DNA from: an uncultured Actinomycetota bacterium
GTDB lineage: Bacteria > Actinomycetota > Actinomycetes > Streptosporangiales > Streptosporangiaceae
NCBI GenBank assembly: GCA_963846005.1
Contig: CAWJUH010000003.1
Location: 803,992-867,991, forward strand
DNA: 64,000 bases
Direction of reading: 5' to 3'
Both the position numbers and the translations under genes were made by a program. Position 1 is the first letter of the stretch; the number at the start of each line of letters is the position of its first letter. Shown here in pieces: positions 4,024 through 24,370 of this stretch. Below the pieces are notes generated by a model. It did no database searches and was not told the DNA's origin. It saw only the letters and a program-made list of their open reading frames with translations.

Positions 4024-4218
4024 ACACCTCGAAACCATCTGTCACCGGGCACGCAGGCCGTATCGATCTGGCTGCCGACGGCTGGACACCGTCGCGATCG
4101 ACGCGCTCCCCCTCCCCACCGGGCCGGAGGAGCAGCGGCGGGCCGCTCCTTTCCGCCGTCCCACGACCAAGCAATCCGACACCGACTCAAGCCAGCACCG
4201 CAAGTAAAGGATGGACCC

Positions 4219-4663
4219 ATGTCATTTGCACCACGCTTCGACCATGTCGGCATCACCGTCGCGGACCTCGACACGGTGACGGCGTTCTTCGTCGGGCTCG
4301 GTCTGGAGGTCGAGGGCACGCGGGCGTTCATCGAGGGCGAGTTCCTGGACACCGTCATTGGCATCCCCGGCGCCCGCACCGAGATTGTCATGCTGCGGCC
4401 GCCCGACGGAGGCACCCGGCTGGAACTGTCCAGCTTCGTCCGGCCCGGCCCCCAGCCCGGGTCGCCGGGCCGCGATGGCCAACGAGCTAGGGCTGCGCAA
4501 CGTCGCCTTCGAGGTTGACGACCTCCAGGCCGCCGTCGACCAGCTCGCCAAAGACGGCTACGGACTGGTCGGCGGCATCGGCCAGTACGAGCACATCTGG
4601 CGCATGGCCTACGTGCGCGGGCCGGAAGGAATCATCGTGTCCCTGGCCGAGCGCATCGGCTGA
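4219..4663 (+). pseudogene. VOC/glyoxalase family gene interrupted by apparent frameshift (two overlapping ORFs 4219..4518 and 4358..4663)
   Basis: N-terminal half (HVGITVADLDTVTAFFVGLGLEVEG...) and C-terminal half (NVAFEVDDLQAAVDQLAKDGYGLVGG...IIVSLAE) lie in different frames. Confidence 0.5.
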
Positions 4664-6101
4664 CGCGCCAATCGCCATAGACGATCCGCTTGCGACCCAC
4701 CCTCGGTGACAACCGGCGGCAGAGAGAACAGAACTGGCTATCGGGCACGCCCTCAAGGACTGCCAGCGAAACGCGCCGAATCGGCGTTATACGGGTGATC
4801 GTTGTCAAGGGGTTTGCTCTTCGGTGTCGACGCGCTTGATGAGGTTGATGAACAGGGCGGCTCGCGCGGGCTGCCCGTGGTCGCGGGCGTGGTCGCGCTG
4901 GCGGGTGAGGATGGGCAGGAACTCGGTGCTGGTGCGGAAGTAGGCGCAGGTTTCGCAGGCGGATTCCATGCGGCAGTCGAGTTCGGCGGGCCGGGTGCAC
5001 AGGCCGTTGCCGAGCATGCGGGCGTGGGCTTCGCGGCGTAGCTTCGGCCATGCCGGTGGTCTCGTAGTCGGCGGGCAGTTCGGGTGGCTGCCCGTAGAGC
5101 GCGTCGATCTTGGCGCTGACCGCGGCGTATTCGTCGGCGATGACCCGGTTGGCGATCCGCGCGTAGATCAGGGTCATCTCCATCTTGCGATGGCCGAGCA
5201 GGGCGGCGATGGCTTCCAGCCGCATGCCGCGGTTGATCGCCTGGGTGGCCAGCGTGTGCCGCAGCCGGTGCGGGTGCACCCCGGGGACGCCGGCGGCCCG
5301 GGCGACGCGGGCAACGATGCGGCCGATGACATAGCGGTCCAGCGGGCCGCGGTGGTCGGCGACCAGCGGGCGGTGGCGGCGGATGTGCTCAAGGCTGGCT
5401 GCGGTCCAGGCGGCGAGCAGCTCCACCAGCTCAGAATGCAGTGGCACGTAGCGATCGTTGCGGAGCTTGCCCAGCGGGATGCGCAGCCAGTGACCGGTGC
5501 CGATCTGCACGACCGCGTCCGCTTCCAGGTCCGCGAGCTCACCGGCTCGCATGCCAGTGCGCGCGAGTAGCTCGACGACGAGCCGGTCGCGGGGATCGTC
5601 TGCGGCCCGGGCGGCGGCCATCAGCCTGGTCGCGTCGCGATCGTCGAGGAACTTCGGCAGCGGCTCGGGCTTCTTGGGGATGTCCCCGGCGATGACAGGA
5701 TTGCGGGCCGGGGCGTCCTGCCAGTCCCACTCGATGATCCGCTCGAAGAACTGGCGCACGGTCCGCATCCGCTGCCGGTGCGTCTCAGCGGTGATCGTCT
5801 GGCTGCCTGCCCGGGGCTGGACGGCCAGCCATACCTTGTAGTCCTCGATGTCATCGCGGCGGATATCGCCGATCGCGGTGATGCCGGCATCGGTGATCAT
5901 CCAGCGGGCCAGCTGCCGCAGCGCGTTCTCCGCGGCCGCGACGCTGGCCGGGGCGAGGAAGGTGCCCAGCCGCTGCAGATACCGCTCGATCACCGCCGCA
6001 ACCTGCGGCGCCGCCGCCCGGATCTGCACCCACTGCGCGGCGGCGGCGCTGCCAGCCACCGCGCGGCCGGCGGCCGGAGCGCGCGCGGGCAGCGCGCTCA
6101 C
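4632..6101 (-). CDS. Tyrosine recombinase (phage integrase family); C-terminal end uncertain (possible frameshift near 5040)
   Basis: HRLRHTLAT box, LLGHRKMEMTLIYARI catalytic Tyr region; N-terminal SAM-like core-binding domain; tail after ~5040 is low-complexity while the alternative frame 4805..5017 carries a Cys-containing motif. Confidence 0.65.
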   Translation of the reverse strand: MSALPARAPAAGRAVAGSAAAAQWVQIRAAAPQVAAVIERYLQRLGTFLAPASVAAAENALRQLARWMITDAGITAIGDIRRDDIEDYKVWLAVQPRAGSQTITAETHRQRMRTVRQFFERIIEWDWQDAPARNPVIAGDIPKKPEPLPKFLDDRDATRLMAAARAADDPRDRLVVELLARTGMRAGELADLEADAVVQIGTGHWLRIPLGKLRNDRYVPLHSELVELLAAWTAASLEHIRRHRPLVADHRGPLDRYVIGRIVARVARAAGVPGVHPHRLRHTLATQAINRGMRLEAIAALLGHRKMEMTLIYARIANRVIADEYAAVSAKIDALYGQPPELPADYETTGMAEATPRSPRPHARQRPVHPARRTRLPHGIRLRNLRLLPHQHRVPAHPHPPARPRPRPRAARASRPVHQPHQARRHRRANPLTTITRITPIRRVSLAVLEGVPDSQFCSLCRRLSPRVGRKRIVYGDWRVSRCARPGTR

Positions 6102-7201
6102 CGGGCTGCCTCCTGCACCGCCAGCATCTCGCAGACGGCGGCGGTATCGGCGTCGATCAGCGCGGCGGCGCGTAGATACTCCCCGGCCAGCCAGTCATTG
6201 GCCAGGTGCAGGTAGACCCGGGTGGACTCAATCGACCGATGACCGGCCTGGGCCTGCACCGCCTCCAGTGCCATCCCCGCCTCCCGCAGCCGGGTCAGGC
6301 ACGTATGCCGCAGCTCATGGCAGGTCGCGTGCTCCAGGCCCGCGCGGCCGCGGGCGCCATCGAGGATCTCATCCAGCCCTTCCGCCGACAGCGGCATACC
6401 TCGCCGCGGACCCTTGAGCACCACGAACACCCGGTCCGTGGCCGCCCCGGCTGGCCGCTCGTCATGCAGGTAATCACCGAGCGCCTCGAAGAACCGGCCC
6501 GCGGCCGGGACCACCCGGTGATGACCGCCCTTGCCCTCCACCACGGCCAGCCGCCGGTCAGCGACCTGCACGTCCTCGAACCGCAACCCCAGCACCTCAC
6601 ACCGGCGCAGCCCGGCCAGCAGCATCGCCAGCACCATTGCCCGGTCCCGGTGCGTGCGCAACGCGGCGACCAGCCGGTCCGCCTCCCGCGGCGGCAAGAT
6701 CCTCGGCAGCGTCCGCGGCACCCGCACCAGCGGCACCGTCCGCGACCGCACCGACCCGCCCTGCCGCCGGGTCAGCAGCCCCCGCGGCACCGGATTGACC
6801 TGCACCGGCGTATCGCCCCGCGCCACCAGGTAGGCATATAGGCCCGACACCGACGACAGCCGGCGGGCGATCGTCCTCGCCGACAGCCCCGACTCACCAT
6901 CAGCCAGCCGCACCACAGTGCGGTCCCCGCGCTGATGGGCCAGGAACTCGAACACATCCGCCGCGGTGACCTCCACCGGCTTTCTCACGATCACCATGAA
7001 GAACGTCTTCAGGTCAAAGGCCACCGCCCGCAGCGTGTTCGGCCGGCACCGCCCCGCCACGAACTCCAGATACCGGTCCACCAGCCGCTCGCCCAGACGA
7101 TAACGGACCTGGCCAGACCCCGACACACTACGCACAAGACACGGGAAGCTGCTCATCCCAGCACCGTCCCAGCGCGGCCCGCAAGAACGCGGAAGCGACA
7201 C
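6098..7201 (-). CDS. Tyrosine recombinase, XerC/XerD-like; translationally coupled to the downstream recombinase by a 4-nt overlap
   Basis: HELRHTCLT box, AGHRSIESTRVYLHL catalytic Tyr region; 367 aa. Confidence 0.75.
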   Translation of the reverse strand: MSLPRSCGPRWDGAGMSSFPCLVRSVSGSGQVRYRLGERLVDRYLEFVAGRCRPNTLRAVAFDLKTFFMVIVRKPVEVTAADVFEFLAHQRGDRTVVRLADGESGLSARTIARRLSSVSGLYAYLVARGDTPVQVNPVPRGLLTRRQGGSVRSRTVPLVRVPRTLPRILPPREADRLVAALRTHRDRAMVLAMLLAGLRRCEVLGLRFEDVQVADRRLAVVEGKGGHHRVVPAAGRFFEALGDYLHDERPAGAATDRVFVVLKGPRRGMPLSAEGLDEILDGARGRAGLEHATCHELRHTCLTRLREAGMALEAVQAQAGHRSIESTRVYLHLANDWLAGEYLRAAALIDADTAAVCEMLAVQEAAR

Positions 7202-7441: not shown

Positions 7442-7485
7442 GGTCGGGGTGGCCGGATTTGAACCGGCGGCCTCTTCGTCCCGAA
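7442..7485. repeat. 44-bp direct repeat identical to 24369..24412 (3' part of tRNA-Pro); distal att site of the integrated element
   Basis: Exact identity gtcggggtggccggatttgaaccggcggcctcttcgtcccgaa at both loci. Confidence 0.85.
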
Positions 7486-8460: not shown

Positions 8461-9124
8461 TGCGTAGGCACCCGACAGGGCCGTCTGGGCTCGTTCAGAT
8501 CGGTCCGCGACCTTGGGCGCATCCTGGCTGGGCGTTCATTCCTGTTCGGATTCCCGCCAAGTCGTCCGCCCGGGTGGCTCCCAACTTGGCTCCCGACCGA
8601 TATGGGTCTGACCTCTTCCTCATCAGGGTGTCGGCTGACTGCCCAGGCGGTTGTCGGCGACGCTCGAATGTGGGGCTGTTGCCCCGGCGCCTATGGCCTC
8701 GTTTTCGAGCGGCGCCGACAGCGGTGGTTTCAGTCCTCTGTCCTGCGTTTACAGCACTAGTCTGCTCCCAGACCTGCCCTGTGATGTCCTGCGTCTGCCC
8801 GTACTTCCCAGGACTCTAAAGGCCACTGTAAGGCCAGCTCTAGGGAAGATCCGCTAGGAGCGGGGCCCGGCCAGGCTACTCGCCGATCAGCGCCTTGAAC
8901 GACGGCTCGTCGCGGATCGAGTTGAAGTCAGAGTCTTCGCGTGCATCTGCGCGGAGCTTCTCTGACGCGCCGACCGCGCTCCCCAAGTGATCGATCGCCT
9001 CGGCTGTGTGGCCGCTCAGGCTCTCGCTGCAGGGGAGGGAGGAAGGTGGATGCACGCGAAGATTCGCTTATCATCGAAGATGATTGCATGCAGTGCTTCG
9101 GAGGCGATGGGTGTGACAACGACG

Positions 9125-9556
9125 ATGGTCAGGATGATTATTGCGGTTTCGTCAGTATGCATGATTGCAGGCTGCGGGACAGCAGGCAATACAAGCCAAC
9201 CTTTGATGTCGCATAAAGCACATAAATTCATTACGGTTCCGACATCGTCAGCGCCGCCTGGCGCTCCAGGCCTGTCTGCCCTCACCAGAGGGCGTCTGGA
9301 GGCGGGCCGATTTAAGGGCAAGCCGTGTCTTTGGCTCGGGAACGGTACTCGCACGATGGCTGTTGTCTGGCCGCGAGGATTTAAAGCACGATGGCAGCGA
9401 GATAAGCTTGAGCTGCTGAATGCCCGGGGCAAGGTAGTTGCTGAGAGCGGCGAGATTATAAAGCTCGGGGGAGGAACGGCTCCTGCCCCGCAGGTCGCCT
9501 GCATGCTTGGTCATGAGCTAGCGTTCTACGCAAGCGGAGGCCCAGCGCGTGGCTAA
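9125..9556 (+). CDS. Putative lipoprotein (alternative start 9050)
   Basis: Signal peptide with lipobox MVRMIIAVSSVCMIAGC; lies in AT-richer island. Confidence 0.45.
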   Translation: MVRMIIAVSSVCMIAGCGTAGNTSQPLMSHKAHKFITVPTSSAPPGAPGLSALTRGRLEAGRFKGKPCLWLGNGTRTMAVVWPRGFKARWQRDKLELLNARGKVVAESGEIIKLGGGTAPAPQVACMLGHELAFYASGGPARG

Positions 9557-9575
9557 CGGCAGATGAGGCGATGCC

Positions 9576-10628
9576 TCATCCTACGGAAGTGCCGAAGAAC
9601 GAGTCGATGTTGCCTATTTGTTCATAGTAGCCGACGTGGCAATTGTCGCCTTGACTGTTACAGTCACCCCCTCCGATTGTAGTTCCGGCGATTTTGGCGC
9701 CGTTGCTGTCCCTCACAATCCATGGTCCTCCGCTGTCTCCTTCACTAACAACCGGAGTGTCGTCGTAGCCTGTGGATGTGACCCAGGCTCTGGTTATACC
9801 GTCGGAAAAGGCTACATACTGGTTGACACTTTGCACTGAGATGTCGTTTACTTCGCCCGTAAAGGCACTGTCTTGCGTGACCAAGTCGAAGGGCTGCGGA
9901 AAGGCAGTCCCGTCTTCAGCGTAGCTCGCCTGGCTTTTATCGCCCCCACTCCACACGTTCCATGAGTAGTTGCTGTTCGCGGAATTATGATCTATAAGCT
10001 CAGAATCGATGCAATTATTACAGAGCCGGACTTCAAAAACATTACCCATGTGCGGCCCGCCGGTCTGGCCAGACCTATCGCTTCTGTAAACATATTTATT
10101 AAGCTGCGGCTCGCAGTGACCAGCTGTTAGCATATAGTTATAACTGCCGATATGAACGATCGGTCCCCCGGTGCATTGGCTACTTGATGCGGGGATCAGA
10201 ATGAAGTCTCCTCCGAAGTATGGGGGCGTGTCATTTATCCGGTCTGCCGGTATGGGCCTGGGCATTGAAGTTTTTGAGACCACTACAGAATTACCGTACA
10301 GGGAATATAGTACATGAGCCGCCGCTTGGCTATAATGGGTGAGGCGAATTTCGACTTTGCCTGACCTGGGATCTGGACCCCACTGAGTCAGCTCTACACC
10401 TTTAGCTTTGAGGTTAGCCTCGCTGGCAGCGATGGATTGAGTAGTGACCTTATTCTGAGCCGACCCCCAGCCAAGCAAGGATGCCGGGTTGGGGTTATGG
10501 CCATCTCGCACTGTCTTCAGGCGAACCGACAGGGCTGCTGCCGACGTAGTTGCCATAGCAGGTCCGATCAGCAGGCAGGACACTGCAGAAATTGACACTG
10601 CAATTTTAACTAACTTAGGACTATTCAT
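9576..10628 (-). CDS. Secreted S1-family serine protease (chymotrypsin/streptogrisin-like)
   Basis: N-terminal signal peptide; catalytic His motif LTAGHC and Ser motif GDSGGP; visibly lower GC than flanks. Confidence 0.75.
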   Translation of the reverse strand: MNSPKLVKIAVSISAVSCLLIGPAMATTSAAALSVRLKTVRDGHNPNPASLLGWGSAQNKVTTQSIAASEANLKAKGVELTQWGPDPRSGKVEIRLTHYSQAAAHVLYSLYGNSVVVSKTSMPRPIPADRINDTPPYFGGDFILIPASSSQCTGGPIVHIGSYNYMLTAGHCEPQLNKYVYRSDRSGQTGGPHMGNVFEVRLCNNCIDSELIDHNSANSNYSWNVWSGGDKSQASYAEDGTAFPQPFDLVTQDSAFTGEVNDISVQSVNQYVAFSDGITRAWVTSTGYDDTPVVSEGDSGGPWIVRDSNGAKIAGTTIGGGDCNSQGDNCHVGYYEQIGNIDSFFGTSVG

Positions 10629-10971
10629 TACAGAATGATAAGTATTCAGGTCTCACAAGGCAAGACCCACAGGCCAGCTTCTTGCGCAACGCAGCTCTGC
10701 ATCGCTAGCAAAGACCTTCTGGCCTCGTCGCTGCGGAGACGCAACCCCCAGCCTTCTGATCCGTAGAGTGTGTCGGCCGTACGCGCGACCTGCCGTGTGC
10801 CGTCCGGGCAGCCATAACGGCTTTCGCTGGTGCGCATTGCTCGTCGCTATTGTGCGGTACTGTCCGGCCAGGATCCGGCCAGTCTCAGCCGGTGATCTCC
10901 TGGCGAGCGGGTGCGATCCCGGCTGCTGCACTTGCGTGCTCCACCAGCCGGCCTCGGCATACCGTGGGCCG

Positions 10972-11706
10972 ATGTTCGCTATTGAGGAACGAGAGCGAGT
11001 GCGGGGCCGTTTGCTGGAGCTGGCCGCCGCCGACCCCACCGTGAACGGAGCCGCGGTCACCGGCTCGCACGCGGCGGGCAGTTCCGACCGGTGGTCAGAT
11101 ATCGACCTGGCGCTCGCTATCCCCGGCTCGCTGGCCGCTTCGCTTGATCAGTGGACGGATGTGCTGACCCGGGATTTCGCCGCGGTGCATCACTGGGATC
11201 TTCGGTCAGGCTCGGCGGTGTACCGCGTGTTCTTGCTGCCGGGCTGGCTGGAGGTGGACATCGCGTTCATCCCGGCCGCTGAGTTCGGCCCGCTCGGACC
11301 GAACTGGCGCACTGTCTTCGGCGCCACCGTGCCGCTCGAACCATCCGGTCCGCCGGAGTTCAGCCAGCTAGCTGGCCTGGCCTGGCATCACGCCCTGCAC
11401 GCCCGAGTCAGCATGGAGCGGCAACGGTACCTGCAAGCTGAATACTGGATCGGCGCAATGCGCAGCCAGGTGATCGCTTTGACCTGCCTGCGGCTCGGGT
11501 ACCCGGACGCCCATGCCAAGACCGCGCACCGGCTGCCCGCCGATGTCACCGCCCGGCTGGCCAACACGCTCGTCAGATCGCTGGATCCGGCTGAGCTGCG
11601 CCGCGCCCTGGCCGCCGCCACGACAGCCCTGTCCGCCGAGCTTGAATACCCCAGTAATAGCCAGACCAGACGGCTGGACTCGATGCTGATCGAACGGACA
11701 CGCTGA
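10972..11706 (+). CDS. Nucleotidyltransferase domain protein (Pol-beta superfamily; possibly antibiotic NTase-like)
   Basis: GS-x10-DID signature (VTGSHAAGSSDRWSDIDLALAI); ATG at 10972. Confidence 0.55.
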   Translation: MFAIEERERVRGRLLELAAADPTVNGAAVTGSHAAGSSDRWSDIDLALAIPGSLAASLDQWTDVLTRDFAAVHHWDLRSGSAVYRVFLLPGWLEVDIAFIPAAEFGPLGPNWRTVFGATVPLEPSGPPEFSQLAGLAWHHALHARVSMERQRYLQAEYWIGAMRSQVIALTCLRLGYPDAHAKTAHRLPADVTARLANTLVRSLDPAELRRALAAATTALSAELEYPSNSQTRRLDSMLIERTR

Positions 11707-12004
11707 CCAGTTCCTTATCAGGCAAACCCGAGCACGCTTGCGACCATGGCCAACGTGGCCGCTGACCTGGGCGGACCGTCCCCGGCCGTCCGTGGCCGTC
11801 TGCCTGGTCGCGTGGTGATTGTTACGCAGTTGGTTACTCAGTCCGTGCCACGCCTCGATGCGCAAAGCATCTTGCCGTTAACGGCCCCGAAGGCCGCGCA
11901 AGGCTAGGCCTCCGATCTGCTGTCATGAATGCCCAGACAGTCGTTTGGTCCGCGACTGGTCCATGGCGGCTGACCGGGCCGTCGGCTGTGAAGACTATCG
12001 ACTG

Positions 12005-12487
12005 CTAGTCAGCCCGTTCATTGATACTCGCTATCTCTTCTACAAATCGCGATCTAAGCTCCGCCAAGGTTTGAGGCAGGCACGACTCATCACAGCGCTT
12101 CTTGGTCGCATTAGTTATGTAGGTGAACCAGCTGTAAACCGGATCCCTGCCATAATTAGGTATGATTGGGTCTTTCTGGAGATCTTTCCTGATTTGCGCG
12201 CTTGACACGCGACATTCAATGAACTTCTCTTGATTGACAGGGAGGCGCAGGCAACGCCACTTCCAAGATCCATTCGAAGAAACCACAACTGCAGGCCCGC
12301 CTATGTTTATCTCCCAAAAGGTGACAAGAGGTTCACGTTTCCCAAGGAACCGTCCAAATTCAATCGAAAGCTCGCTTAGGCACTTCGCGACTTCGTCGTA
12401 GTGGTACAGCAGACTGGCCACTGCACCCTCACGATCACGCTTCTTCTGCTCCAGCAGATCTAGTGCTTCATCCTCGATGCTCGGCAT
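12005..12487 (-). CDS. Hypothetical protein (low-GC cargo)
   Basis: 160-aa ORF in AT-richer island; no recognizable motif. Confidence 0.4.
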   Translation of the reverse strand: MPSIEDEALDLLEQKKRDREGAVASLLYHYDEVAKCLSELSIEFGRFLGKREPLVTFWEINIGGPAVVVSSNGSWKWRCLRLPVNQEKFIECRVSSAQIRKDLQKDPIIPNYGRDPVYSWFTYITNATKKRCDESCLPQTLAELRSRFVEEIASINERAD

Positions 12488-12864
12488 ACCCCATAACGTA
12501 AAGCACGGTCAGCACCCCCGCACGGGAGTCAAACGCGCAACTAACTGCTTAGGAGAACTTCAAGATCATCGATCCGACCTGTATTATTGCAGGTCATCGG
12601 CGGTTCCCATTGCGCATGAGTGCCCCTGAGGCAGCGGGTTTGCCTAGCACTGGGGCACGAACAGGGCACGACACCTGACCCTCTCGATGCGAACTCGCGG
12701 CCAGCCGGTCGATGATGGCGTTTGGGCAGGCCGCATGGTTGCTGACGGTCGCACCGGGAAAAATACGACTTTCGTCCGCTTCTGTCAAAGTTGTTTACTC
12801 TAGCAGCCCGCCAAGAAAACAAGTGTTGCTAGGCTTTTCATCGCCGTCTTTTAGGAGCAGAAAC

Positions 12865-13809
12865 TCAAGGCAGCGCAGAGTCTGCCGCGATATAGTAATA
12901 TTGAAGTATTCGTTCGCCTATTTCGGTGGGACTCCATTGCGTAGGGGACGTAAGGCCCACAGCGTCCCGTTCTGAGATTGCAGGCACAATTGGAGTCGAG
13001 TTATTGGCTGAGTAATATCCATGCGGAGAATGTGTATATGAGTCTGAAAGCGAGTCATTGCTTAGCTTTTTGGAATATTTCGCTAGCATGCTTGGAGAAT
13101 TATCGAATTGCTGCGCCAAGCCATGCCGCTGAAGCGTGGCGATCAGACTGGTCAGCACTTCTCGCAGTGAAGGTCTGGCTTCTTCAATTTGGTAGTTCGA
13201 CCATTTGCGCCGACCGATTGTCCAGCCGCTTCTGGTGAAATCTCCTGCAATGAACCCGTGGGGCCTAGTGTTGTGAATTGGAAATTTTTCATGCTTGATA
13301 GGACTGTCCTGTTTCCCGTCCTTCCCTTCGGATGGCACCCAGTTAACGATGAGCTCCAGTACAGATAGATGAGGGCGTTCCAAGTCTGCCATTGCAGGAA
13401 GGGCCAAATCAGCAAAGTATATCTGAGCTTCATCCGAAGCAATTAGGCCGCCCGCCAAGGCTCTGCCAAGTGCATGCACTTTAGGAGGCCAAGCCGTACT
13501 AGATGCCGAAGTCATCGCGTTCATTGCTATGAGCCGCGTACGTTCGGAAGCGTTAATCAGACCTGCGAGTTTCTCAGGGTCACACTCTGCCGCTATCGAG
13601 GCGCTGGTAAGCATTCCCTTAACTCGCCGTCGCGCGTCAGATCGGAATTCCCCCACGGCTTTGTTGAGGAAGTCCTCTAGATATGGACTGGAAAGTGCAC
13701 CAATTGCGATCCCATCGATTCCGCCTAGCCTTGCGCCTGCGACGACTGCGGAGGCATCAGCCACAGCTCTTATAAGGCGACTTGGTTCCTGATCCTCATC
13801 TGACGTCAC
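12865..13809 (-). CDS. Hypothetical protein (low-GC cargo)
   Basis: 314-aa ORF in AT-richer island; no recognizable motif. Confidence 0.45.
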   Translation of the reverse strand: MTSDEDQEPSRLIRAVADASAVVAGARLGGIDGIAIGALSSPYLEDFLNKAVGEFRSDARRRVKGMLTSASIAAECDPEKLAGLINASERTRLIAMNAMTSASSTAWPPKVHALGRALAGGLIASDEAQIYFADLALPAMADLERPHLSVLELIVNWVPSEGKDGKQDSPIKHEKFPIHNTRPHGFIAGDFTRSGWTIGRRKWSNYQIEEARPSLREVLTSLIATLQRHGLAQQFDNSPSMLAKYSKKLSNDSLSDSYTHSPHGYYSANNSTPIVPAISERDAVGLTSPTQWSPTEIGERILQYYYIAADSALP

Positions 13810-14404
13810 AGGGCATAGCCTAATCCGTCTTGACGATGATTCGAGCTCTCTCGATGGTTATCCGACTCAGCCACAGCTTCCCCGTCCTCCCTGGTAGGTG
13901 CCGAGATCTTGCCGGGGAAGGTCGCAGTCAAGGGGCGGCGCGTGCGCCGATCGCGTAGCGACGCGCCCTTGGGCGCGCCCTTTACTGTGACCTTTCTCCG
14001 GTGAGAGGATGCCCGGCGTGTGGAGGACGGCTCCTTCCGCCACACTGCGGGCTGCGCGTGGGCTATCCGTGCCGGGTGTTCGTGGCGGCCGGGCTGTGGT
14101 GCGGGCCGGGGCGGGGCGGACCTGCCTTGCGGCAGTTGCCCGCGCCGTGCCTCCCCAGGCTAAGGCAGCGGGCAGAACTGCCGCCCCGGCGCAGACAGTA
14201 GCCCCGCCACCCGGCACGCTGACGCCAAGGCGCCCTTGCTGCTTTTACTCGACGCGCTGCTCGGCTCAGGCTTTCGTGCGTGCCTGGCCGTCGGCGCCGG
14301 GCCGGGGTGCGGGCCGTCTGGCGCGCCCGCAAGGGCGTGCCCTTGAAGCTGTAGAGAAAATCGTCACAGTTCACAGGCACTAATTCGATGAAGCATTCGA
14401 CTGG

Positions 14405-15586
14405 TCAGGCGAGTGGAGGGCTAGGCCCGTCGCCTCCGATGGTGGTTCCTGTCGGCCATAGCTTCTCCAGCTCGGCGGGCGTGAGCGGATCCCGGTAAGC
14501 GGCTTGCAGGACACTGCGCCAGGCGTCGGCGGGCGCTTGCGCGAGCTGGGTGAACCAGTCAATGCCGGCGGGATAAGACCACTGGTAGGACCGCAGCAAG
14601 GGGTCTGCTCCCCGGTCAGTGAGCATGTCAGCGATCTCGGCTTCCGTCCAGAACGGAACATGGCCGCTCGCATAGGCGGCGCACTGGTCGATGCTGGCTC
14701 CGGAGTTCACCGCGATGTGCAGGGCCGCCCGTACGAGCTGGGTGTAGTGATCGATCCGGACTCTGGTCATCAGCAGCTTGTCGTCCGGCGCGACGAACAG
14801 CGGCAGCGTCTGGCCGAGTCCTTCCAGCAGTACCTGCTGGGGTGCGTGTACCGACAGCAGCCGGACCCACGGCACTGGACCGGCCGCGCAGCGCTGGGCG
14901 TAGCTGGCTCCCTGGAGACCGTGGCCCAGGATCTCGTGCAGGGCGAACTGGCGGGCGTGAGCTTCGGTGAACCGGGCTTCTTTGAGGTTGAGGCGCAGTC
15001 GAACGTCCGGTCCGCTGCCGTCGGTCCAGAAGGCCCAGTAGGCGTTGACGGTGGTGGTCTCGATGGTCAACTCATACGGCGCGGTGGCTCCCGTAAGTTC
15101 CCGGACGACCGGCTCGTATCTGAGGGCCGCGTCCCCGATGGCACCGGGGGCATCGGATGCGTCGATCGGCCTTTCGATGTGTTCCTGGTCTTTGCGGGTG
15201 CGGGCGTTCCAGCCGATGCCAAGGTCGGCCAGCTGGCGGCGTGCCAGCTCTCCTGCGTGCTGGATGTAGTCCTCAGGCCAGCCCAGGGCGTGACAGCCCT
15301 GGGTGCCGAAGATGTAGCTGTCCAGGTCGGCGCGCTGGCCCATCAGCTCCCGTAGGTAGAGCAGATGAGCCCCGGTCCGCTCGGCCAGCATCGGTTCGCC
15401 GCTGGCCTCGGCTTGCTGCTTCAATGCCGCTAGCCGTTGGTAGGTGGTCAGCCGGTCAGCAGGCTTGATGTCCTCGCTCGCGGACTGCGGGTGGCAGTCG
15501 TAGTCGATCACGGCGGGCGCACCGCGCGCCAGCTCGTGTTCGTGCCAGGCCCGCAACGCCCGCTCGATCTGGTCACGAAGCGGCAC
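14405..15586 (-). CDS. Putative zinc metallopeptidase (HExxH motif; DUF1704/ImmA-IrrE-like gluzincin is a guess)
   Basis: FALHEILGHGLQ motif; 393 aa; 14-nt overlap with the upstream gene. Confidence 0.45.
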   Translation of the reverse strand: MPLRDQIERALRAWHEHELARGAPAVIDYDCHPQSASEDIKPADRLTTYQRLAALKQQAEASGEPMLAERTGAHLLYLRELMGQRADLDSYIFGTQGCHALGWPEDYIQHAGELARRQLADLGIGWNARTRKDQEHIERPIDASDAPGAIGDAALRYEPVVRELTGATAPYELTIETTTVNAYWAFWTDGSGPDVRLRLNLKEARFTEAHARQFALHEILGHGLQGASYAQRCAAGPVPWVRLLSVHAPQQVLLEGLGQTLPLFVAPDDKLLMTRVRIDHYTQLVRAALHIAVNSGASIDQCAAYASGHVPFWTEAEIADMLTDRGADPLLRSYQWSYPAGIDWFTQLAQAPADAWRSVLQAAYRDPLTPAELEKLWPTGTTIGGDGPSPPLA

Positions 15587-16727
15587 TATCGGTATCCCAT
15601 CTCAGCTCAACGATCTGCCCGGGCCGCAGGTAGTCCGCGGCCAGGGTCAGGCTCACGCCGTGGTCATCGTAGTCCCACAGCAGCCCCTCGCTGACCGGCA
15701 TTTCCGACCCATCCGGCCGCTCGACCGTGGCCGCGCATTCGCTGAGCCGCTTGATATTCAGGTGCCGGACCCGCAGCGTGTAGTGGCGGGTGTAGCGCGG
15801 CATCGTTTGCCGCCAGTACCACTCGTCATGAAATGACCCGCCCTCGCACGTATACCGGATCACCGTGCGCTCTCCCGGTCCGAGCGGCGGCGAGATCTTG
15901 AACGCGAACTTGGCCAGCGATCCCGCGTCGTGAATGCGCTGGATCACCACGGCCCGGTCGTTGTGCTTGGTCGCCTTGATGACAATCGGCGCGTAGGTGT
16001 ACTGGAACCAGACCTCACGCGGCATGCGCACGAGTGGCTGCTCACCGAGATTGAGCAGATCATGCTCATATAGCACGTGCACCCGGCCGTGATCATCGAT
16101 CTCCAGGCTCAGGCTCAGCTCCAGCTCGACCACGTTGCCCGCCAGCGCGGCGAGCTGCCGGGTCTCAGTGTCCGACAACCGGAGCTGGCGGCTCAGCTCG
16201 ACTAGCCGCTTCCCTAGCTTCCGGGCACTGACGCTGTCCTGATCGCGCACATAATCGCTGATCGCGCTGGCCACTATCTGACGCGCACCGACAGTCCGGT
16301 CATCGGCGCCGGTTGGCCCCCATGCGGGCGGTGAGGTATCCGGCTGCCGCAATCCGGTATCGATCGCGCCCAGAACCTGTCCGATGTCCTTGCGCGCCAG
16401 CGCGCCCTGCCCACGTGACCCGGCCAGATCACCGTCATTGCTACCTGCGGGCTGGAAAAGCTGCGCAATCGTCCAGTCGGGAAACATCACCTCCAGCACC
16501 CGGCAATGGTGAGAGAAAGGCAGCCGTTTCACACTCCCGGACAGCCAGCGCTGATACTGCGCCCGGCTCGGAGACGACCCAGCCAGATCCGGGTCCACCA
16601 CGTGAGCGGCCTTGTCGTACTCCGCGCAGAACGTCGCATACGACTGCCAATGACGCTGTTCTAGCAGGACCTTCAACCGGATCGGCGATGACTTCACGCT
16701 GCCCTCCCGTGATGTCTCAGCTATCAC
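15573..16727 (-). CDS. Hypothetical protein with possible N-terminal HTH (XRE-like) region
   Basis: 384 aa; N-terminus IRLKVLLEQRHWQSYATFCAEYDKAA resembles an HTH; divergent from the + strand operon starting at 16900. Confidence 0.4.
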   Translation of the reverse strand: MIAETSREGSVKSSPIRLKVLLEQRHWQSYATFCAEYDKAAHVVDPDLAGSSPSRAQYQRWLSGSVKRLPFSHHCRVLEVMFPDWTIAQLFQPAGSNDGDLAGSRGQGALARKDIGQVLGAIDTGLRQPDTSPPAWGPTGADDRTVGARQIVASAISDYVRDQDSVSARKLGKRLVELSRQLRLSDTETRQLAALAGNVVELELSLSLEIDDHGRVHVLYEHDLLNLGEQPLVRMPREVWFQYTYAPIVIKATKHNDRAVVIQRIHDAGSLAKFAFKISPPLGPGERTVIRYTCEGGSFHDEWYWRQTMPRYTRHYTLRVRHLNIKRLSECAATVERPDGSEMPVSEGLLWDYDDHGVSLTLAADYLRPGQIVELRWDTDSAAS

Positions 16728-16899
16728 CCCACCCTACCAAGGATGAGACATCTATGCGACATGGCGCACGCGGAAGAGGCGGAAACGACTCCCTACGACA
16801 CAACGGCGCAACACGGGCTTGGCTAATGCTCGTGTCATGGCCAGAAAGGCCAACCACGAGTCAGCCCAGCCAAAGGGTTGCCGAAGGAGAGGCAAGATC

Positions 16900-17238
16900 A
16901 TGCGACTTCTGATCGACACGAGCAGCGTCCAGTTTCGGGTGGCCGGTATGCCGAAGGAGCGTCCGGACTACAAGGACAAGGAGCGGCAGGCGACCACGCG
17001 CGAAGGGCAGCCGATCTGGACGGTGCGCCTGGACGCGATCGACACCGTGCGGGAGACCAAAGAAACCATCTGGGTCGAGGTGGCTGGCAACGAGCCCAAG
17101 CTGACCTTCGATGGCTTCGCCTCGGTCACCGGCCTGGTGTTCGCACCGTGGGTCGGGCGTGACGGCAAGATCCGCCGCTCATTCCGCGCCGACACCGTCG
17201 AGCCCGCCCCGGCCGCGAAGGCCGTGCACGCGGCCTGA
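16900..17238 (+). CDS. Hypothetical protein, first gene of AICE transfer/replication operon
   Basis: ATG at 16900 with GAAGGAGAGG RBS. Confidence 0.5.
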   Translation: MRLLIDTSSVQFRVAGMPKERPDYKDKERQATTREGQPIWTVRLDAIDTVRETKETIWVEVAGNEPKLTFDGFASVTGLVFAPWVGRDGKIRRSFRADTVEPAPAAKAVHAA

Positions 17239-17295
17239 GCCGTCCCCGGCCAGGCGGAACCATCCCCTACCTCGCGATCAGACCAAGGAGACCCC
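17227..17295 (+). promoter_or_regulatory. Conserved intergenic module copy 1 (box CCCCTACCTCGCGA plus AAGGAGA RBS)
   Basis: Shares a 30-40 bp core with copies at 17665..17755 and 18745..18829. Confidence 0.5.
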
Positions 17296-17661
17296 ATGAC
17301 CAGCATCCGCATCACCGGAATCGACTCCAGATTCGACGACCTGACCCCGGCGGAGTTCCCGCCGCTGCCGATCGGCGCGCTTGTCGCCGGGACGCTCAAC
17401 CTGCTGGAGGAATCCGGAGGGCTGCCCCAGCCGGTGTACCTCACCGTGTCCGACTCGCAGTCGGTGGATCTGCTGTTCGCCCCCGACCCGTCCAGCCTGC
17501 GGGCTATCGCCCGGTGGGCGATGCGCTTCGGCGGCGTCATGACCAGTGAGCCCCACCGGGGCAAGAGCGGCCCGGAGACCTGGTGCCGCGTCCAGTTCGA
17601 CTACTACGGCGTGGCCGTCTGTGCCTTCGCCCACATCCCGGTCTGCGCGACCACGCTCTGA
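17296..17661 (+). CDS. Hypothetical protein
   Basis: ATG preceded by AAGGAGA within a conserved intergenic module. Confidence 0.5.
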   Translation: MTSIRITGIDSRFDDLTPAEFPPLPIGALVAGTLNLLEESGGLPQPVYLTVSDSQSVDLLFAPDPSSLRAIARWAMRFGGVMTSEPHRGKSGPETWCRVQFDYYGVAVCAFAHIPVCATTL

Positions 17662-17664
17662 TAC

Positions 17665-17755
17665 CCGGTGCCGGGCTGGAGGGCTGCCATCCCCCCCGTC
17701 CCGGCCAGCCACCACCCGATCCCTACCTCGCGAACGACGATCAAGGAGAACTGTT
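17665..17755 (+). promoter_or_regulatory. Conserved intergenic module copy 2 (nested hairpin plus box plus RBS)
   Basis: gccgggctggagggctgccatccccc...cccggccagcca...tccctacctcgcgaa...aaggagaact. Confidence 0.5.
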
Positions 17756-18739
17756 ATGCCAGCAAACGTCGAGTCCATGTTCTCGGTCCGCCAGATGCCC
17801 TGGCACCGGGAAGGCACCGTCCTCGCGGATTACCCCGGCGACTGGGCCGAGGCCCGCAAGCTTGCCGGGCTGAACTGGGACCCGGTGACCACCGGGGTCT
17901 ACGCCTTCACTGGCATCAACATTGACGCCACCACGCACTACGAGCCGATCGAGGGCTGGCAGTGCATCATCCGCTCCGATACCGGGGCCGTCCTGTCCAT
18001 CAACCGCGATACCTACACCGTGATCAACCACGGCGCGATGGGCGAGATCGTCGAAGCCGTCCTCGCCCAGCCCAACGTGAAGTGGGAGACCGCCGGGGTC
18101 CTGGACGGCGGCCGGTCGGTGTGGTGCCTGGCCCTGCTCGACGAGCCCGTCGAGCTGCCCGGCGATGACAGCCCGACCCTGCCCTACCTGGCGATCACCA
18201 ACCGGCACGACGGCACCGGCTCATGCGCCCTGCGGGCCACCGCGGTCCGCATCGTCTGCGCCAACACCTTCCGCGCCGCCGAACTCGAAGGCGAACGGAC
18301 CGGCGCCACCTTCTCGTTCATCCACAAGTCGAGCTGGCGAAACCGGATCGAGGAAGCCCGCCGCGCCGTCACCGGCGCTCAGGCCGAGATGCGCCGCTAC
18401 ACCGAACTCGCCCGAGAACTGCTGGCCATCCCCATCACCGGAAAGCAGCGGGAGCTGTTCATCACCGAATTCATTCCCAAGCCTCCCGAGGGGCTGATCA
18501 CCGACCGGGTGGCCCGCAACGTCGAGGAAGCCCGCAGCGCGCTGCGGCTGCTCTTCCAGTCCACCACCAACGAGCAGATCGCCGGTACCGCCTACGGCCT
18601 GGTCCAGGCCGCCGGGGAGTACCTCGATCATGTCCGCATCGCGCGGTCCTGGGAGACCCGGCTCAACCGGACCCTGATCCGGCCCGAGCCGCTCAAGCAC
18701 CGCGCATTGTCCCTGGCTCGAGAGGTCACCACCGCCTGA
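17756..18739 (+). CDS. DUF932 / phage-plasmid-like protein (TIGR03299-like)
   Basis: ATG at 17756 preceded by a conserved module with AAGGAGA; ~327 aa; typical ICE/AICE neighbourhood. Confidence 0.5.
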   Translation: MPANVESMFSVRQMPWHREGTVLADYPGDWAEARKLAGLNWDPVTTGVYAFTGINIDATTHYEPIEGWQCIIRSDTGAVLSINRDTYTVINHGAMGEIVEAVLAQPNVKWETAGVLDGGRSVWCLALLDEPVELPGDDSPTLPYLAITNRHDGTGSCALRATAVRIVCANTFRAAELEGERTGATFSFIHKSSWRNRIEEARRAVTGAQAEMRRYTELARELLAIPITGKQRELFITEFIPKPPEGLITDRVARNVEEARSALRLLFQSTTNEQIAGTAYGLVQAAGEYLDHVRIARSWETRLNRTLIRPEPLKHRALSLAREVTTA

Positions 18740-18744
18740 CAGCA

Positions 18745-18829
18745 AGATGCCGGGCTGGGGGACTGCCATCCCCCGGCCCGGCCAGCCAGAACCATCCCCT
18801 ACCTCGCGAAAAGCAAAGGAGAACTCGGC
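18745..18829 (+). promoter_or_regulatory. Conserved intergenic module copy 3 (nested hairpin plus box plus RBS)
   Basis: gccgggctgggggactgccatcccccggcccggccagccagaaccatcccctacctcgcgaaaagcaaaggagaact. Confidence 0.5.
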
Positions 18830-19063
18830 ATGTCCGATCCTACCTTCCCCGCCCCCGGCCGGGTGGTCCTCGACTGGCGGCGCGGCCAGATCGGCCCGCT
18901 CGCCCCGTGCGTGATCTGCGGGCGGCTGGCCATCTGCCGCTCCCCGGGCAAGAACGCGCCCTGCCACAAGCGGTGCGCCGAAACCTGGATCACCACCCAC
19001 GCCAGCCCGCGTGACCAGCGCAGGCTGATCCGCGCCAACACTCCGCGAGGTGGTGCCAGGTGA
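18830..19063 (+). CDS. Small Cys-rich protein
   Basis: CVICGRLAICRSPGKNAPCHKRC; preceded by conserved module. Confidence 0.45.
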   Translation: MSDPTFPAPGRVVLDWRRGQIGPLAPCVICGRLAICRSPGKNAPCHKRCAETWITTHASPRDQRRLIRANTPRGGAR

Positions 19064-19443
19064 GCGGCTTCCGGGTCATCTACCACGCGACCGTCTGTCC
19101 CGACTGCGGATCAGATGAGGTCACCGAGCACGACATCGTCATGACTGACGGCACGGCCGAGACCGCGCTGACTTGCGGCCAGTGCGGCGCAGCATGGCCG
19201 GTGGCCTGCGTCGCTGAGAACCTACAGCCCGCTAGCCCCGACCCGGCATGCGCACCGCACCTGGCCTTGCGGATCGACGCCAAACCGCCCGGCACTGCCG
19301 CTGAGCACCGCCGCTACTGGTGCCCCCGCTGCGACGCCTACCTGACCGGCACGGAACTGGCCACCACGAGCGCGTTGCACTACACGCCCGGCCCCGACCG
19401 CATCATCACCCGCGCCGATCTCACCCCGGCAGGCCGGTCATGA
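19060..19443 (+). CDS. Zinc-ribbon-containing hypothetical protein
   Basis: CPDCGS...CGQCG and CPRCD motifs; start overlaps upstream stop. Confidence 0.45.
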   Translation: MSGFRVIYHATVCPDCGSDEVTEHDIVMTDGTAETALTCGQCGAAWPVACVAENLQPASPDPACAPHLALRIDAKPPGTAAEHRRYWCPRCDAYLTGTELATTSALHYTPGPDRIITRADLTPAGRS

Positions 19444-19835
19444 CCGCCCGCGTCCCCGCCCTCGACGCTATCCAGGCCCGCGGACTGCGGGTGGTGTCCT
19501 ACGACCCGGACGGCAGCCGGCACGGCCTGCCCACTTACCCCTGGCGATGGGCACCCGCTGGGCTGCTCACCCGCCGCCAGCTCCGCGCCAAGGGCCTGCG
19601 CCCCGGCGGCCAGGAAATCTGTGCGCAGATCCTGTGGCGCCGCGGCAAGCGCGTCGCCTACCTCTACGCCGAGCAACTCGCCCTGCCCAAGCGCACCGCG
19701 ACCGCCGCGCAGCTCGCCGCGGTCGCCAAGGCCCTGACCGCCCGGCGCACCTGCCCGGCCTGCGGCCAGCTCAAGTCCTACTACATCCCCCGATCCACCG
19801 GCGAATGCCTCAACTGCACCCCCGGAAGGCGGTGA
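19440..19835 (+). CDS. Hypothetical protein with C-terminal CxxC...CxxC motif
   Basis: ATGA start/stop overlap with upstream gene; RRTCPACGQ...ECLNC. Confidence 0.45.
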   Translation: MTARVPALDAIQARGLRVVSYDPDGSRHGLPTYPWRWAPAGLLTRRQLRAKGLRPGGQEICAQILWRRGKRVAYLYAEQLALPKRTATAAQLAAVAKALTARRTCPACGQLKSYYIPRSTGECLNCTPGRR

Positions 19836-19841
19836 CACCCG

Positions 19842-20531
19842 ATGTCCGCGAACACCCCTGGCCGTGGCACTGGCCGTAACCGGCGCGCCAGCAGCCCCTA
19901 CATCATCGATGACCTGTTCGTCACCATGCACCGCTCGGCCGCCGGAACGGCCTGGCGGTGGCGCACCGAACTCACCCTCCTCACCGCAACCATGGCGCTC
20001 GGATGGCGACTGACGGTGATCATGACTTTCACCTGGGCCGCGATCACTATCGCTGCGGGCCTGGCCGTCGTGCTGGCGCTGCCGCCAACCCGGCGGTTCA
20101 CGGTGCGCCGGTTCTGGTGCGTGCTGGCCCGCCACCGGCTGCACAAGCTGTGCTGGGAAGCCCACCTGCATACCCGCTCCGGCAGGCTGCCGCTGATCTT
20201 GTGGACCCGGCCGACCAAGGTCGGAGAACGGGCCTGGATCGTGTGCCGGGCCGGGATCTGCGCCGAGGACTTCGAGAACAACCTCGGCGAGATCCGCTCC
20301 GCCTGCTACGCCCGCGACGCGCGGGTCACCAGCAACACCCGCTGGTCCCACCTGATCACCGTCGATGTGATCCGCCGCGACACCCTCGCCGCCCGCCACC
20401 AGGTGGCATCACCCCTGCCCCGCCTGCCCCGGCCCGCGCCGGACCCGCAGGCCAGTTCCCGGCGGCCGTCGTGGCCCGACCGGCCCGCCCTGCCCGGCCC
20501 CGACACGGCCGACATCATCCCCATCCGCTAG
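19842..20531 (+). CDS. Membrane protein (Spd/Tra N-terminal-like)
   Basis: Hydrophobic segments (LTLLTATMALGWRLTVIMTFTWAAITIAAGLAVVLAL). Confidence 0.45.
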   Translation: MSANTPGRGTGRNRRASSPYIIDDLFVTMHRSAAGTAWRWRTELTLLTATMALGWRLTVIMTFTWAAITIAAGLAVVLALPPTRRFTVRRFWCVLARHRLHKLCWEAHLHTRSGRLPLILWTRPTKVGERAWIVCRAGICAEDFENNLGEIRSACYARDARVTSNTRWSHLITVDVIRRDTLAARHQVASPLPRLPRPAPDPQASSRRPSWPDRPALPGPDTADIIPIR

Positions 20532-20602
20532 CAGGCCTGGCCCGGCCCTCCCCCTGCGGCGGGCCGGGCCAGCCAGCCCACCTTTTGAAGGAAGTGATCC
20601 TT

Positions 20603-21436
20603 ATGACCACCACCCTGATCCCGCCGCTGGCCTCCCTGGCGGTGCCGGTGTTCCCGCTGTCGATCTGGCAGCCGGTGCACCTGGGCATGGACGAGCACGG
20701 CGACCAGGTCCACGTCGACCTGGCCGAGCGGAACATGCTGCTGGGCGGCGAACCCGGCGGCGGCAAGTCCAACGGCCTCAACCTCATCACCGCCCACGGC
20801 GCCCTGTCCGGCGACTGCAAGCTCGTCCTCATCGACGGCAAGCAAGTCGAACTCGGCGCCTGGCGGCACTGCGCCGACACCTTCGTCGGCCCGTCCATCA
20901 CCGACGCGATCGACTGCGGCAAGTACCTCCAGCAGATCATGAACACCCGCTACGACGCCCTGCTCGCCAACGGGCTCCGCAAGATCACCCCGGAGACCGG
21001 CGAGCCGGTCTACCTGGTGATCATCGACGAATACGCCTACTTCTCCGCCACCGTCGGCACCAAAGCCCAGCAGGCCGAGTACTCGGCGCTGACCCGGGAT
21101 CTGGTGGCCCGGGGCCGGGCCGCCGGGGTGATCGTCATCCTGGCCACCCAGCGGCCCTCGCATCAAGTAATCGACCCCTCGCTGCGGGACCTGTTCGGCT
21201 ACCGGTGGGCCTTTCGCTGCACCACCGACAGCTCCTCGGATGTGGTGCTCGGCCAGGGCTGGGCCACCGCGGGCTATTCCGCCGCCACCATCGACCCGCT
21301 CGCTCGCGGGGTGTCGTGGCTGCTGTCGGAGACCGGCGAGCCCCGGCGAATCAAGGCCGCCTACCTGGCCGACGCCGAAATTGCTTACCTCGCCACCTGG
21401 GCCGCCCAGCTCCGCCGCAAGGAGCCCGTGCCGTGA
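20603..21436 (+). CDS. tra: FtsK/SpoIIIE-family DNA translocase ATPase (TraSA/TraB-like conjugal transfer protein)
   Basis: Walker A GGEPGGGKSN, Walker B LVIIDEYA; RBS GAAGGAAGTGA. Confidence 0.7.
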   Translation: MTTTLIPPLASLAVPVFPLSIWQPVHLGMDEHGDQVHVDLAERNMLLGGEPGGGKSNGLNLITAHGALSGDCKLVLIDGKQVELGAWRHCADTFVGPSITDAIDCGKYLQQIMNTRYDALLANGLRKITPETGEPVYLVIIDEYAYFSATVGTKAQQAEYSALTRDLVARGRAAGVIVILATQRPSHQVIDPSLRDLFGYRWAFRCTTDSSSDVVLGQGWATAGYSAATIDPLARGVSWLLSETGEPRRIKAAYLADAEIAYLATWAAQLRRKEPVP

Positions 21437-22902: not shown

Positions 22903-22946
22903 CTGACCTCCGCCCGACTACGCATCTGCCGAAAGGAAGTGATCCC

Positions 22947-24301: not shown

Positions 24302-24370
24302 TCACTCAGATAGTCACTCAGCGCTCATCGGAGCGAGTCCAATTTCGGTTGATAATTGCTCTGACCTGGG

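Follow-up and report, generated by a model that had tools for sequence, protein, structure and literature searches.

A predicted winged-helix protein family without a conserved partner, encoded in the variable cargo of a pSAM2-type integrative element

Do two adjacent, unannotated open reading frames (ORFs) in a low-GC patch of an actinomycete mobile element form a functional unit, and if not, what are they? Here, we address this question in a 64,000-nucleotide (nt) stretch of the genome of an uncultured member of the Streptosporangiaceae (assembly GCA_963846005.1, contig CAWJUH010000003.1; hereafter, the window). A preliminary description of the window had placed two minus-strand ORFs, at 12005-12487 (160 amino acids [aa], ATG start) and 12865-13809 (314 aa, GTG start), in an AT-rich patch inside a mobile element, had recognised no motif in either and had proposed that they form an accessory or defence module. 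The observations in that description hold. Both ORFs are present; the GC content, calculated in 200-nt windows, is 0.47-0.60 over positions 12000-13800 (52-54% for the patch, with flanks at 65-70%) compared with 0.65-0.75 on both flanks and 0.70-0.80 in the rest of the window; neither protein matches Pfam, NCBIfam or PADLOC; and the patch is ordinary variable cargo of a 17-kb pSAM2-type actinomycete integrative and conjugative element (AICE), which is bordered by an exact 44-nt direct repeat of the 3' end of a tRNA-Pro gene and carries integrase, RepSA and Tra genes. Of the proposed module, what stands is uncharacterised, co-oriented, low-GC element cargo; the grouping of the two ORFs into one unit does not. 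Instead, the 314-aa protein belongs to a large, uncurated family with a predicted C-terminal winged-helix fold and no conserved partner.

The 314-aa ORF is certainly a gene, as its homologues number in the hundreds and are uniform in length. Searching with the single sequence gave 39 homologous clusters and searching with a profile gave 264, nearly all of 305-320 aa. The family thus comprises at least 264 clusters, none of which has a Pfam domain or an informative name, and its genome matches are to metagenome-assembled genomes (MAGs) of Streptosporangiaceae and other Actinomycetes. The window protein has no match in Pfam, NCBIfam, PADLOC or PHROGs, and 33 aligned family members gave only scattered sub-threshold matches to the same four collections; with PADLOC-DB 2.0, these were three isolated, chance-level matches (E 0.011-0.075). 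The family is absent from INPHARED (50,697 phage records), PLSDB (72,556 plasmid records) and IMG/VR, and we therefore conclude that it lives on chromosomally integrated elements. The family alignment (A1) contains several conserved blocks, i.e., SE(R/T)xRL...TAWPPKVxALGRxLAxGLxAxD at residues 88-126, DLERxHL..LELL at 142-154, RRKW at 200-203, ARPxLxxVLTSLxGTLQRHGL at 211-231 and WSPTExGE at 292-299. The invariant positions fall mainly into three of them (T105-D126; R212, L222 and TLQRHGL at 225-231; and SPTxxGE at 293-299). Because the homologues have a uniform length and retain these motifs at 30-60% identity, the alignment indicates that the family is under purifying selection. In four long-read MAG contigs (L014-L017), the family gene is broken into two or three frames, and the copies in L013-L015 are located at contig ends; the splits reflect either pseudogenisation of copies on repeated elements or frameshift errors in the long reads.

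Sequence comparisons across loci argue against the 160-aa ORF being a conserved partner of this gene, whether or not it is itself a gene. Outside the window, it occurs only on one identical 3.2-kb short-read contig (L001, Logan), which carries both genes. We compiled 103 loci with a family member, 72 of them non-redundant. In about 70 of the non-redundant loci, what follows the family gene is either a different gene or none, and the genes at this position are related neither to each other nor to the 160-aa ORF; moreover, no downstream family recurs among the 37 loci in which the sequence continues for 1.5 kb or more beyond the family gene. A tblastn search with the 160-aa ORF against plasmids, phages and all fetched loci gave no match, and neither did a blastn search of the fetched loci with positions 11900-12864, which cover the ORF and its flanks, or a blastn search of plasmids with the low-GC patch. 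Downstream ORFs of 146-190 aa in other loci were considered as diverged partners and rejected, all-against-all BLAST showing no relationship.

The preliminary description had itself held that the pairing would fall if the two ORFs did not recur together in other genomes, and they do not. This lack of co-occurrence largely refutes the idea that the two genes form a two-gene defence, abortive-infection or toxin-antitoxin (TA) module. Judged from sequence, we consider such a module highly improbable, even though the ORFs are co-oriented neighbours in one low-GC cargo patch, both lack annotation and one identical contig carries both. In addition to having no homologue of the 160-aa ORF to build on in any database searched, the module lacks a defence model in PADLOC for either protein. 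Nor does the region have the layout of an operon with a short or overlapping junction and a single promoter: a gap of 377 nt separates the two genes, a -10-like hexamer precedes each of them, and a terminator-like hairpin (GGCAG..CTGCC with a T-rich tail, 12869-12886, minus strand) overlaps the stop codon of the 314-aa gene. In the case of the hairpin, its position alone is suggestive, as two terminator-like sites were found in the region compared with 2.6 expected in shuffled sequences. The 377-nt spacer contains a sigma-70-like site on the minus strand (TTGACA-17-TATTTT, 12760-12788), which is not significant by itself (one found and 1.1 expected in shuffles); the spacer folds no better than shuffled sequences (z = 0.17) and has no Rfam match.

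We also observed a perfect 14-nt inverted repeat in the region, with arms at 11896-11909 and 13723-13736 (GCGCAAGGCTAGGC / GCCTAGCCTTGCGC). The first arm is located ~100 nt past the 3' end of the 160-aa ORF, the second within codons 25-29 of the 314-aa gene. By a rough estimate, about 0.02-0.05 such matches are expected by chance per 2.8 kb, and the repeat could be a coincidence or reflect long-range RNA pairing.

The start region of the 314-aa gene gives a first indication of how it may be expressed. The -10-like hexamer TAGGCT (13817-13822, minus strand) is located 7 nt upstream of the GTG at 13809, which is the geometry of leaderless actinobacterial genes and from which we infer a leaderless promoter. 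TANNNT centred 7-12 bp upstream of the transcription start site is the mycobacterial -10 consensus, taken here as actinobacterial, and leaderless mRNAs are common in actinobacteria (PMC3898074; see also PMC4895711). The same arrangement recurs across the family. Considering all in-frame ATG and GTG codons from the aligned N-terminus to the first upstream stop and asking for a TANNNT ending 6-7 nt upstream, we found it in 47 of the 57 evaluable non-redundant family loci. By chance, 0.62 loci are expected because 103 of 16,538 ATG/GTG codons in related loci are preceded in this way. The hexamer is TAGCCT or TAGGCT in 26 of the 47 loci and the start codon is GTG in 40, and among the listed matches, the marked codon opens the conserved charged N-terminus each time. 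The -10 box is kept even in loci with the end of an Xre-TPR gene only 50 nt upstream (L009, L010 and L019). These observations suggest that the family gene forms a transcription unit of its own, which is leaderless and mostly GTG initiated.

Whether the 160-aa ORF is a gene at all is less clear, and in this respect the preliminary description, which treated both ORFs as protein-coding, is well supported for the 314-aa ORF and weakly for its neighbour. We consider it somewhat more probable than not that the 160-aa ORF is genuine, i.e., a leaderless gene confined to its lineage. The hexamer TACGTT (12495-12500, minus strand) ends exactly 7 nt before its ATG, an arrangement that precedes 0.6% of start codons in the background; the ORF is the longest in the spacer and has the best codon log-likelihood of the six frames; its composition is protein-like, with a higher GC content at first than at second codon positions; and it was among the genes called on the Logan contig. 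The competing explanation, a chance frame in an AT-richer spacer or the remnant of a decayed gene, has a smaller but substantial share of the probability. Accordingly with this explanation, no homologue was found in 5.8 billion clusters (word-indexed search), in 1.84 billion representatives (full HMMER scan) or, even at E = 10, in the PDB, and the exact sequence is absent from a collection of 15 billion proteins that contains the 314-aa and 393-aa neighbours from the same contig. Moreover, Markov simulations of regions matched in size and composition produced an ORF of 160 aa or longer in 6.9% of cases (p about 0.07), and the codon score, which was trained on two conserved low-GC genes, exceeds that of the antisense frame only marginally (-0.007 compared with -0.048). 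A single-sequence AlphaFold2 (AF2) model of the protein has a predicted local distance difference test score (pLDDT) of 40.6, which is uninformative and unusable for a fold search. If expressed, the ORF would be a separate leaderless gene and a lineage-specific orphan.

With no partner downstream, does the family gene have one upstream? Clustering of the flanking ORFs identified three recurrent neighbours only. The first is an Xre(HTH_31)-TPR protein of 405-460 aa, which is encoded co-directionally by a gene ending ~50 nt upstream in 8-9 of the 37 loci with upstream sequence; the second is another long HTH_31 protein, encoded upstream and divergently in about 5-7 loci; and the third is a tyrosine integrase, which is encoded 0.1-3.7 kb away in eight loci and is downstream and convergent in L019, L022, L029 and L076. 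The order Xre(HTH_31)-TPR gene, 50-nt gap, family gene was observed in L009, L010, L019, L066, L070, L074 and L076, which represent a distant-clade lineage with the gene at about 7-10 kb; in L019 and L076, the convergent tyrosine integrase comes after the family gene. An obligate pair of the Xre-TPR and family genes was considered and rejected, as the Xre-TPR proteins are 80-86% identical and hence represent one element lineage. The adjoining family proteins are 65-93% identical and, thus, less conserved than the receptor-like Xre-TPR proteins. Because the Xre-TPR genes stem from a single lineage, because the family members in L011 and L066 are 88% identical while one of them lacks an Xre-TPR gene, and because the 384-aa protein encoded upstream in the window is unrelated to Xre-TPR (hhalign probability 0.1), we conclude that the linkage is facultative.

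The backbones that carry the family gene are diverse. It is present on another AICE with RepSA, FtsK and GntR genes (contig P0007), on an integrative and conjugative element (ICE) with a TrwC relaxase and a convergent integrase (L019), within recombinase/transposase and insertion sequence islands (L021 and L008), and on an island with an AAA_15/21 ATPase, PIN, DUF397/HTH_31-DUF5753 and integrase fragments (L023). Genes of the defence or TA type lie near several members, i.e., Mrr in L002, a pPIWI_RE restriction endonuclease together with MazE in L006, the ATPase, PIN and DUF397/HTH_31 genes of L023 named above, and NNH7-NACHT in L011; these are guilt by association only. The last of these genes (L011, 4925-8209) encodes a 1094-aa NNH7-NACHT ATPase with a defence-associated architecture and is located beside an integrase gene and the family member. 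In 25 of 33 loci, the GC content of the family gene is slightly below that of its flanks (median -3.5 points), and the window copy, at -10 points, is among the most extreme.

What kind of protein does this gene encode? An AF2 model built from alignment A1 has a mean pLDDT of 71.8 and a predicted template modelling score of 0.66, with low confidence for residues 1-41. The predicted layout comprises an acidic tip (residues 1-10), a Gly/Ala-rich segment of small-xxx-small motifs (~14-41), a five-helix bundle (43-125) with a pLDDT above 90 for residues 60-120, and a winged helix (132-312). The latter is arranged as H-β-[insertion 161-197]-H-H-β-[insertion 238-290]-β-H and resembles MarR/PadR-type winged helices, and the structures that it matches best are all genuine regulators that bind DNA. 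The model thus shows a winged-helix fold for the C-terminal half. No enzymatic domain was detected, and a sequence search of the PDB with the full family profile gave no match. When mapped onto the model, the invariant T105-D126 block (TAWPPK...GL.A.D) falls in the bundle, while R212, L222 and residues 225-231 correspond to the putative recognition helix and the next strand.

In comparison with MarR/PadR regulators (PDB 2hr3, 4b8x, 6ez1 [RosR], 5dym [PadR] and 4asn [TubR]), the 314-aa protein is predicted to share the winged helix-turn-helix (HTH) fold; however, neither the window protein nor the 33 aligned members match MarR, MarR_2, PadR, HTH_27 or similar Pfam families at E = 1 or below. 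The protein also differs from these regulators by the long insertions between β1 and H2 (161-197) and inside the wing (238-290) and by an additional N-terminal part of ~125 residues without detectable relatives, and it is twice their size. In 8 of the 33 members, the best, although weak, Pfam match is that of an HTH-like stretch in the N-terminal bundle (about residues 66-92 in window-protein numbering) to the Xre/MbcA/ParS antitoxin N-terminal HTH (PF20432). However, the window protein has no such match, and the family has neither a RES/MbcT-type toxin partner nor a C-terminal toxin-binding domain.

The N-terminal segment deserves separate consideration. In the largest clade, a charged cluster is followed by a 28- to 30-residue uncharged Gly/Ala segment (AAAAAGALLGGVIAGPxGAxVGAGLGP). 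Most members have 6-10 overlapping small-xxx-small motifs in this segment, and 55 of 87 members have at least 25 uncharged residues. Among these 87 members, the median maximum KD19 hydropathy is 1.61, with values of up to 2.2 in the main clade; as a test for a classical N-terminal transmembrane helix, these values are borderline. In the clade of the window protein, R and D interrupt the segment, the longest uncharged run is 12-17 residues, and the window protein has a KD19 of 1.5. The main clade shares a GxxxG/AxxxA-rich uncharged segment after a charged cluster with glycine-zipper proteins (YtxH-like, C19orf12-like and Gly-zipper 2TM); however, matches to the corresponding hidden Markov models (HMMs) are weak (E = 0.09 or worse), hydrophobicity is borderline and the window clade has the interrupting R and D.

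Altogether, we favour an explanation in which the patch contains two independent single-gene units and the 314-aa protein is a stand-alone DNA-binding accessory factor, although we hold this explanation tentatively and put it at a little less than an even chance. The family gene travels solitarily on integrative elements of actinomycetes, including AICEs, a TrwC-relaxase ICE and integrase-flanked islands, where it often adjoins a gene for an integrase or an Xre-type regulator. According to this model, its own -10 box would drive a leaderless, mostly GTG-initiated mRNA, and the protein would be made while the element is integrated. The winged helix would bind nucleic acid, probably as an oligomer, and the protein may act as a stand-alone accessory regulator, either as an orphan repressor or as an immunity- or exclusion-type factor. 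Because the putative recognition helix (RPxLxxVLTSLxGTLQRHGL) is among the most conserved blocks across unrelated backbones, we speculate that the target is common to hosts or elements rather than an element-specific operator. The borders of the element, the existence of the family, the fold of its C-terminal half, the geometry of the promoter and the absence of a conserved partner follow from our data directly, whereas DNA binding, the regulatory role and the nature of the target are proposals.

The pSAM2-type proteins KorSA (a GntR repressor), Pra and Pif (a NUDIX immunity protein) are the closest counterparts in functional terms, as they are encoded on the same type of element by small accessory or regulatory genes outside the int-xis-rep-tra core (PMC2440964). 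The 314-aa protein would resemble them in being expressed from the integrated state; however, it shares no homology with GntR or NUDIX proteins. It is also not part of the AICE backbone and, because the family is found on TrwC-type ICEs and integrase islands as well, it is not an AICE-specific regulator.

Several observations weigh against the accessory DNA-binding factor that we favour. The argument for DNA binding is the fold alone, and winged helices also mediate protein-protein contacts. Foldseek searches with the 314-aa protein, as the preliminary description had recommended, gave no significant match in the PDB or BFVD, and the N-terminal bundle has no detectable relative, including with an N-domain-only profile against the PDB. 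The similarity to an Xre-like HTH is below threshold, at 14-17 bits (best 16.9) where the gathering cutoff is 25.8. The majority of family proteins have an acidic pI of about 5, and the net charge of the HTH core is only +1 to +5 (+4/+5 in the largest clade and +2 in the window protein). Neither a -35 element nor an operator-like palindrome is conserved upstream across the family. Finally, the conserved Gly/Ala zipper is not explained by a simple model of a soluble repressor.

Some of these observations would also fit a winged helix that serves as a protein-interaction scaffold and modulates a host or element protein, e.g., in anti-defence or development, without binding DNA. The acidity of the proteins, the invariant surface motifs such as TAWPPK in the bundle, which is not an HTH, and the lack of a conserved operator are all consistent with a scaffold, and an invariant "recognition" helix would be expected of a conserved protein partner as much as of a DNA target. 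However, the closest structural matches being DNA-binding regulators without exception argues against this explanation, as does the HTH core, in which R/K/H residues are conserved and which is positively charged overall in the largest clade; moreover, the gene lies beside genes for Xre-type regulators and integrases, as genes for element regulators do. On balance, we regard a scaffold function as unlikely.

The Gly/Ala segment brings in a further explanation, i.e., that the protein is a single-gene defence or exclusion factor in which the winged helix senses invading phage or conjugative DNA and the glycine zipper inserts into or perturbs the membrane, with abortive infection or entry exclusion as the outcome. 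The conservation in most members of the long uncharged segment with its small-xxx-small motifs speaks for this idea, as do the weak matches to YtxH, C19orf12, Sec61_beta and Mycobacteriophage_TM, the solitary occurrence on diverse backbones at variable cargo positions, and the defence or TA genes nearby in several loci (L002, L006, L023 and L011). However, no defence HMM matches the family, the hydrophobicity of the segment is borderline and charged residues interrupt it in the window clade, and the AF2 pLDDT of the segment is below 45; the absence of the family from phages is neutral in this respect. We consider such a factor improbable, to about the same degree as a scaffold. Marginally less probable again is a single-protein conflict system, a constitutive leaderless membrane-associated sensor-effector with a role in Pif-like immunity or abortive infection exerted by an entirely different protein, in which the winged helix would recognise incoming phage or conjugative DNA and the glycine zipper would block entry or collapse the membrane. 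Nothing in our data shows a defence role for the family.

The element itself conforms to the canonical make-up of an AICE, which consists of an integrase, RepSA, an FtsK-type translocase and att sites at a tRNA gene (AICE review, PMC2440964). The left end (attL, 7442-7485) repeats 44 nt from the 3' part of the tRNA-Pro gene without a mismatch (repeat family D2, 100% identity), and the right end (attR, 24369-24412) is formed by the 3' 44 nt of the tRNA-Pro(CGG) gene on the minus strand (24369-24444), so that the element is integrated at the 3' end of the tRNA gene between flanking att repeats. pSAM2 itself integrates at a tRNA-Pro gene. The core on the plus strand (16819-24301) encodes a DUF932 protein (17546-18739, Pfam E = 1e-45), a single FtsK/SpoIIIE-type Tra translocase (19958-21436, PF01580, E = 2.5e-11), a pSAM2-type RepSA replication initiator (21205-22902, PF20199, E = 7e-143) and a tyrosine integrase (23156-24301, PF00589 Phage_integrase, E = 9e-23), the gene for which adjoins the tRNA-Pro gene. 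Two direct-repeat pairs of 27-33 nt with 93-94% identity (17245-17277/18777-18809 and 17669-17695/18748-18774) bracket the DUF932 gene and may be regulatory or clt-like sites. Directly outside attL, two tandem tyrosine recombinase genes on the minus strand (4632-6101 and 6098-7201) overlap by 4 nt, and both products match PF00589 with E about 1e-30; they may mark another element integrated here or be a pair of recombinases that uses the same tRNA-Pro hotspot. A possible third ORF nearby (3441-4415) has no Pfam match and overlaps a methyltransferase gene on the opposite strand.

The 314-aa and 160-aa ORFs lie in the variable half of the AICE (about 7.5-16.8 kb) together with an AAA_33 kinase-like gene, a trypsin-like gene, a nucleotidyltransferase-like gene and a two-gene operon. 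Both ORFs have a GC content of 0.51-0.52, with 0.49-0.55 at third codon positions compared with 0.78-0.86 in neighbouring genes, and no convincing direct repeats flank the patch as insertion scars. A second low-GC patch in the window (9000-10800, GC 0.50-0.56) contains the trypsin-like gene (9576-10628, minus strand), the 350-aa product of which has a hydrophobic, signal-like segment at its N-terminus, a GDSGGP serine-protease motif and a weak match to Pfam Trypsin (E = 0.036); from these features, it looks like a secreted S1-type protease carried as AICE cargo. The nucleotidyltransferase-like gene (10768-11706, plus strand; 312 aa) has weak matches to NTP_transf_2, MntA-antitoxin (E = 0.0014) and PADLOC PDC-S09 (E = 6e-4), and no HepT-like partner is evident beside it. 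The operon (14405-16727, minus strand), which is located upstream of the 314-aa gene, encodes the 384-aa and 393-aa proteins in genes that overlap by 14 nt. Neither protein has a match in Pfam, PADLOC, NCBIfam or the PDB, the 393-aa protein carries a HEILGH motif, and neither gene recurs beside family members in other loci. The non-coding spacer that separates the 393-aa from the 314-aa gene (13810-14404, 595 nt, about 70% GC) is predicted to fold stably (minimum free energy -292 kcal/mol, z = -3.6, with none of 100 shuffles equally stable) and holds several imperfect inverted repeats, e.g., 14084-14114/14181-14211. It has no Rfam match and no similarity to other loci.

The pair is thus not a system, and one of the two genes is an orphan of doubtful reality. 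What is new is a mobile-element-borne protein with a predicted winged helix, a new architecture and no curated family, rather than a demonstrated new biology. If our inference holds, the 314-aa protein represents a family that has so far gone without a name, comprises at least 264 clusters and occurs specifically on integrative elements of soil actinomycetes; it would combine a distinctive architecture, in which a glycine zipper and a helical bundle precede an insertion-bearing winged helix, with an unusually conserved leaderless promoter. The family is a reasonable candidate for curation in Pfam or as a DUF, and it offers a modest lead for experiments. If the explanation that we favour is correct, it would also be a tractable candidate for understanding how AICEs and ICEs deal with their hosts or with competing elements, be it by regulation, immunity or exclusion.

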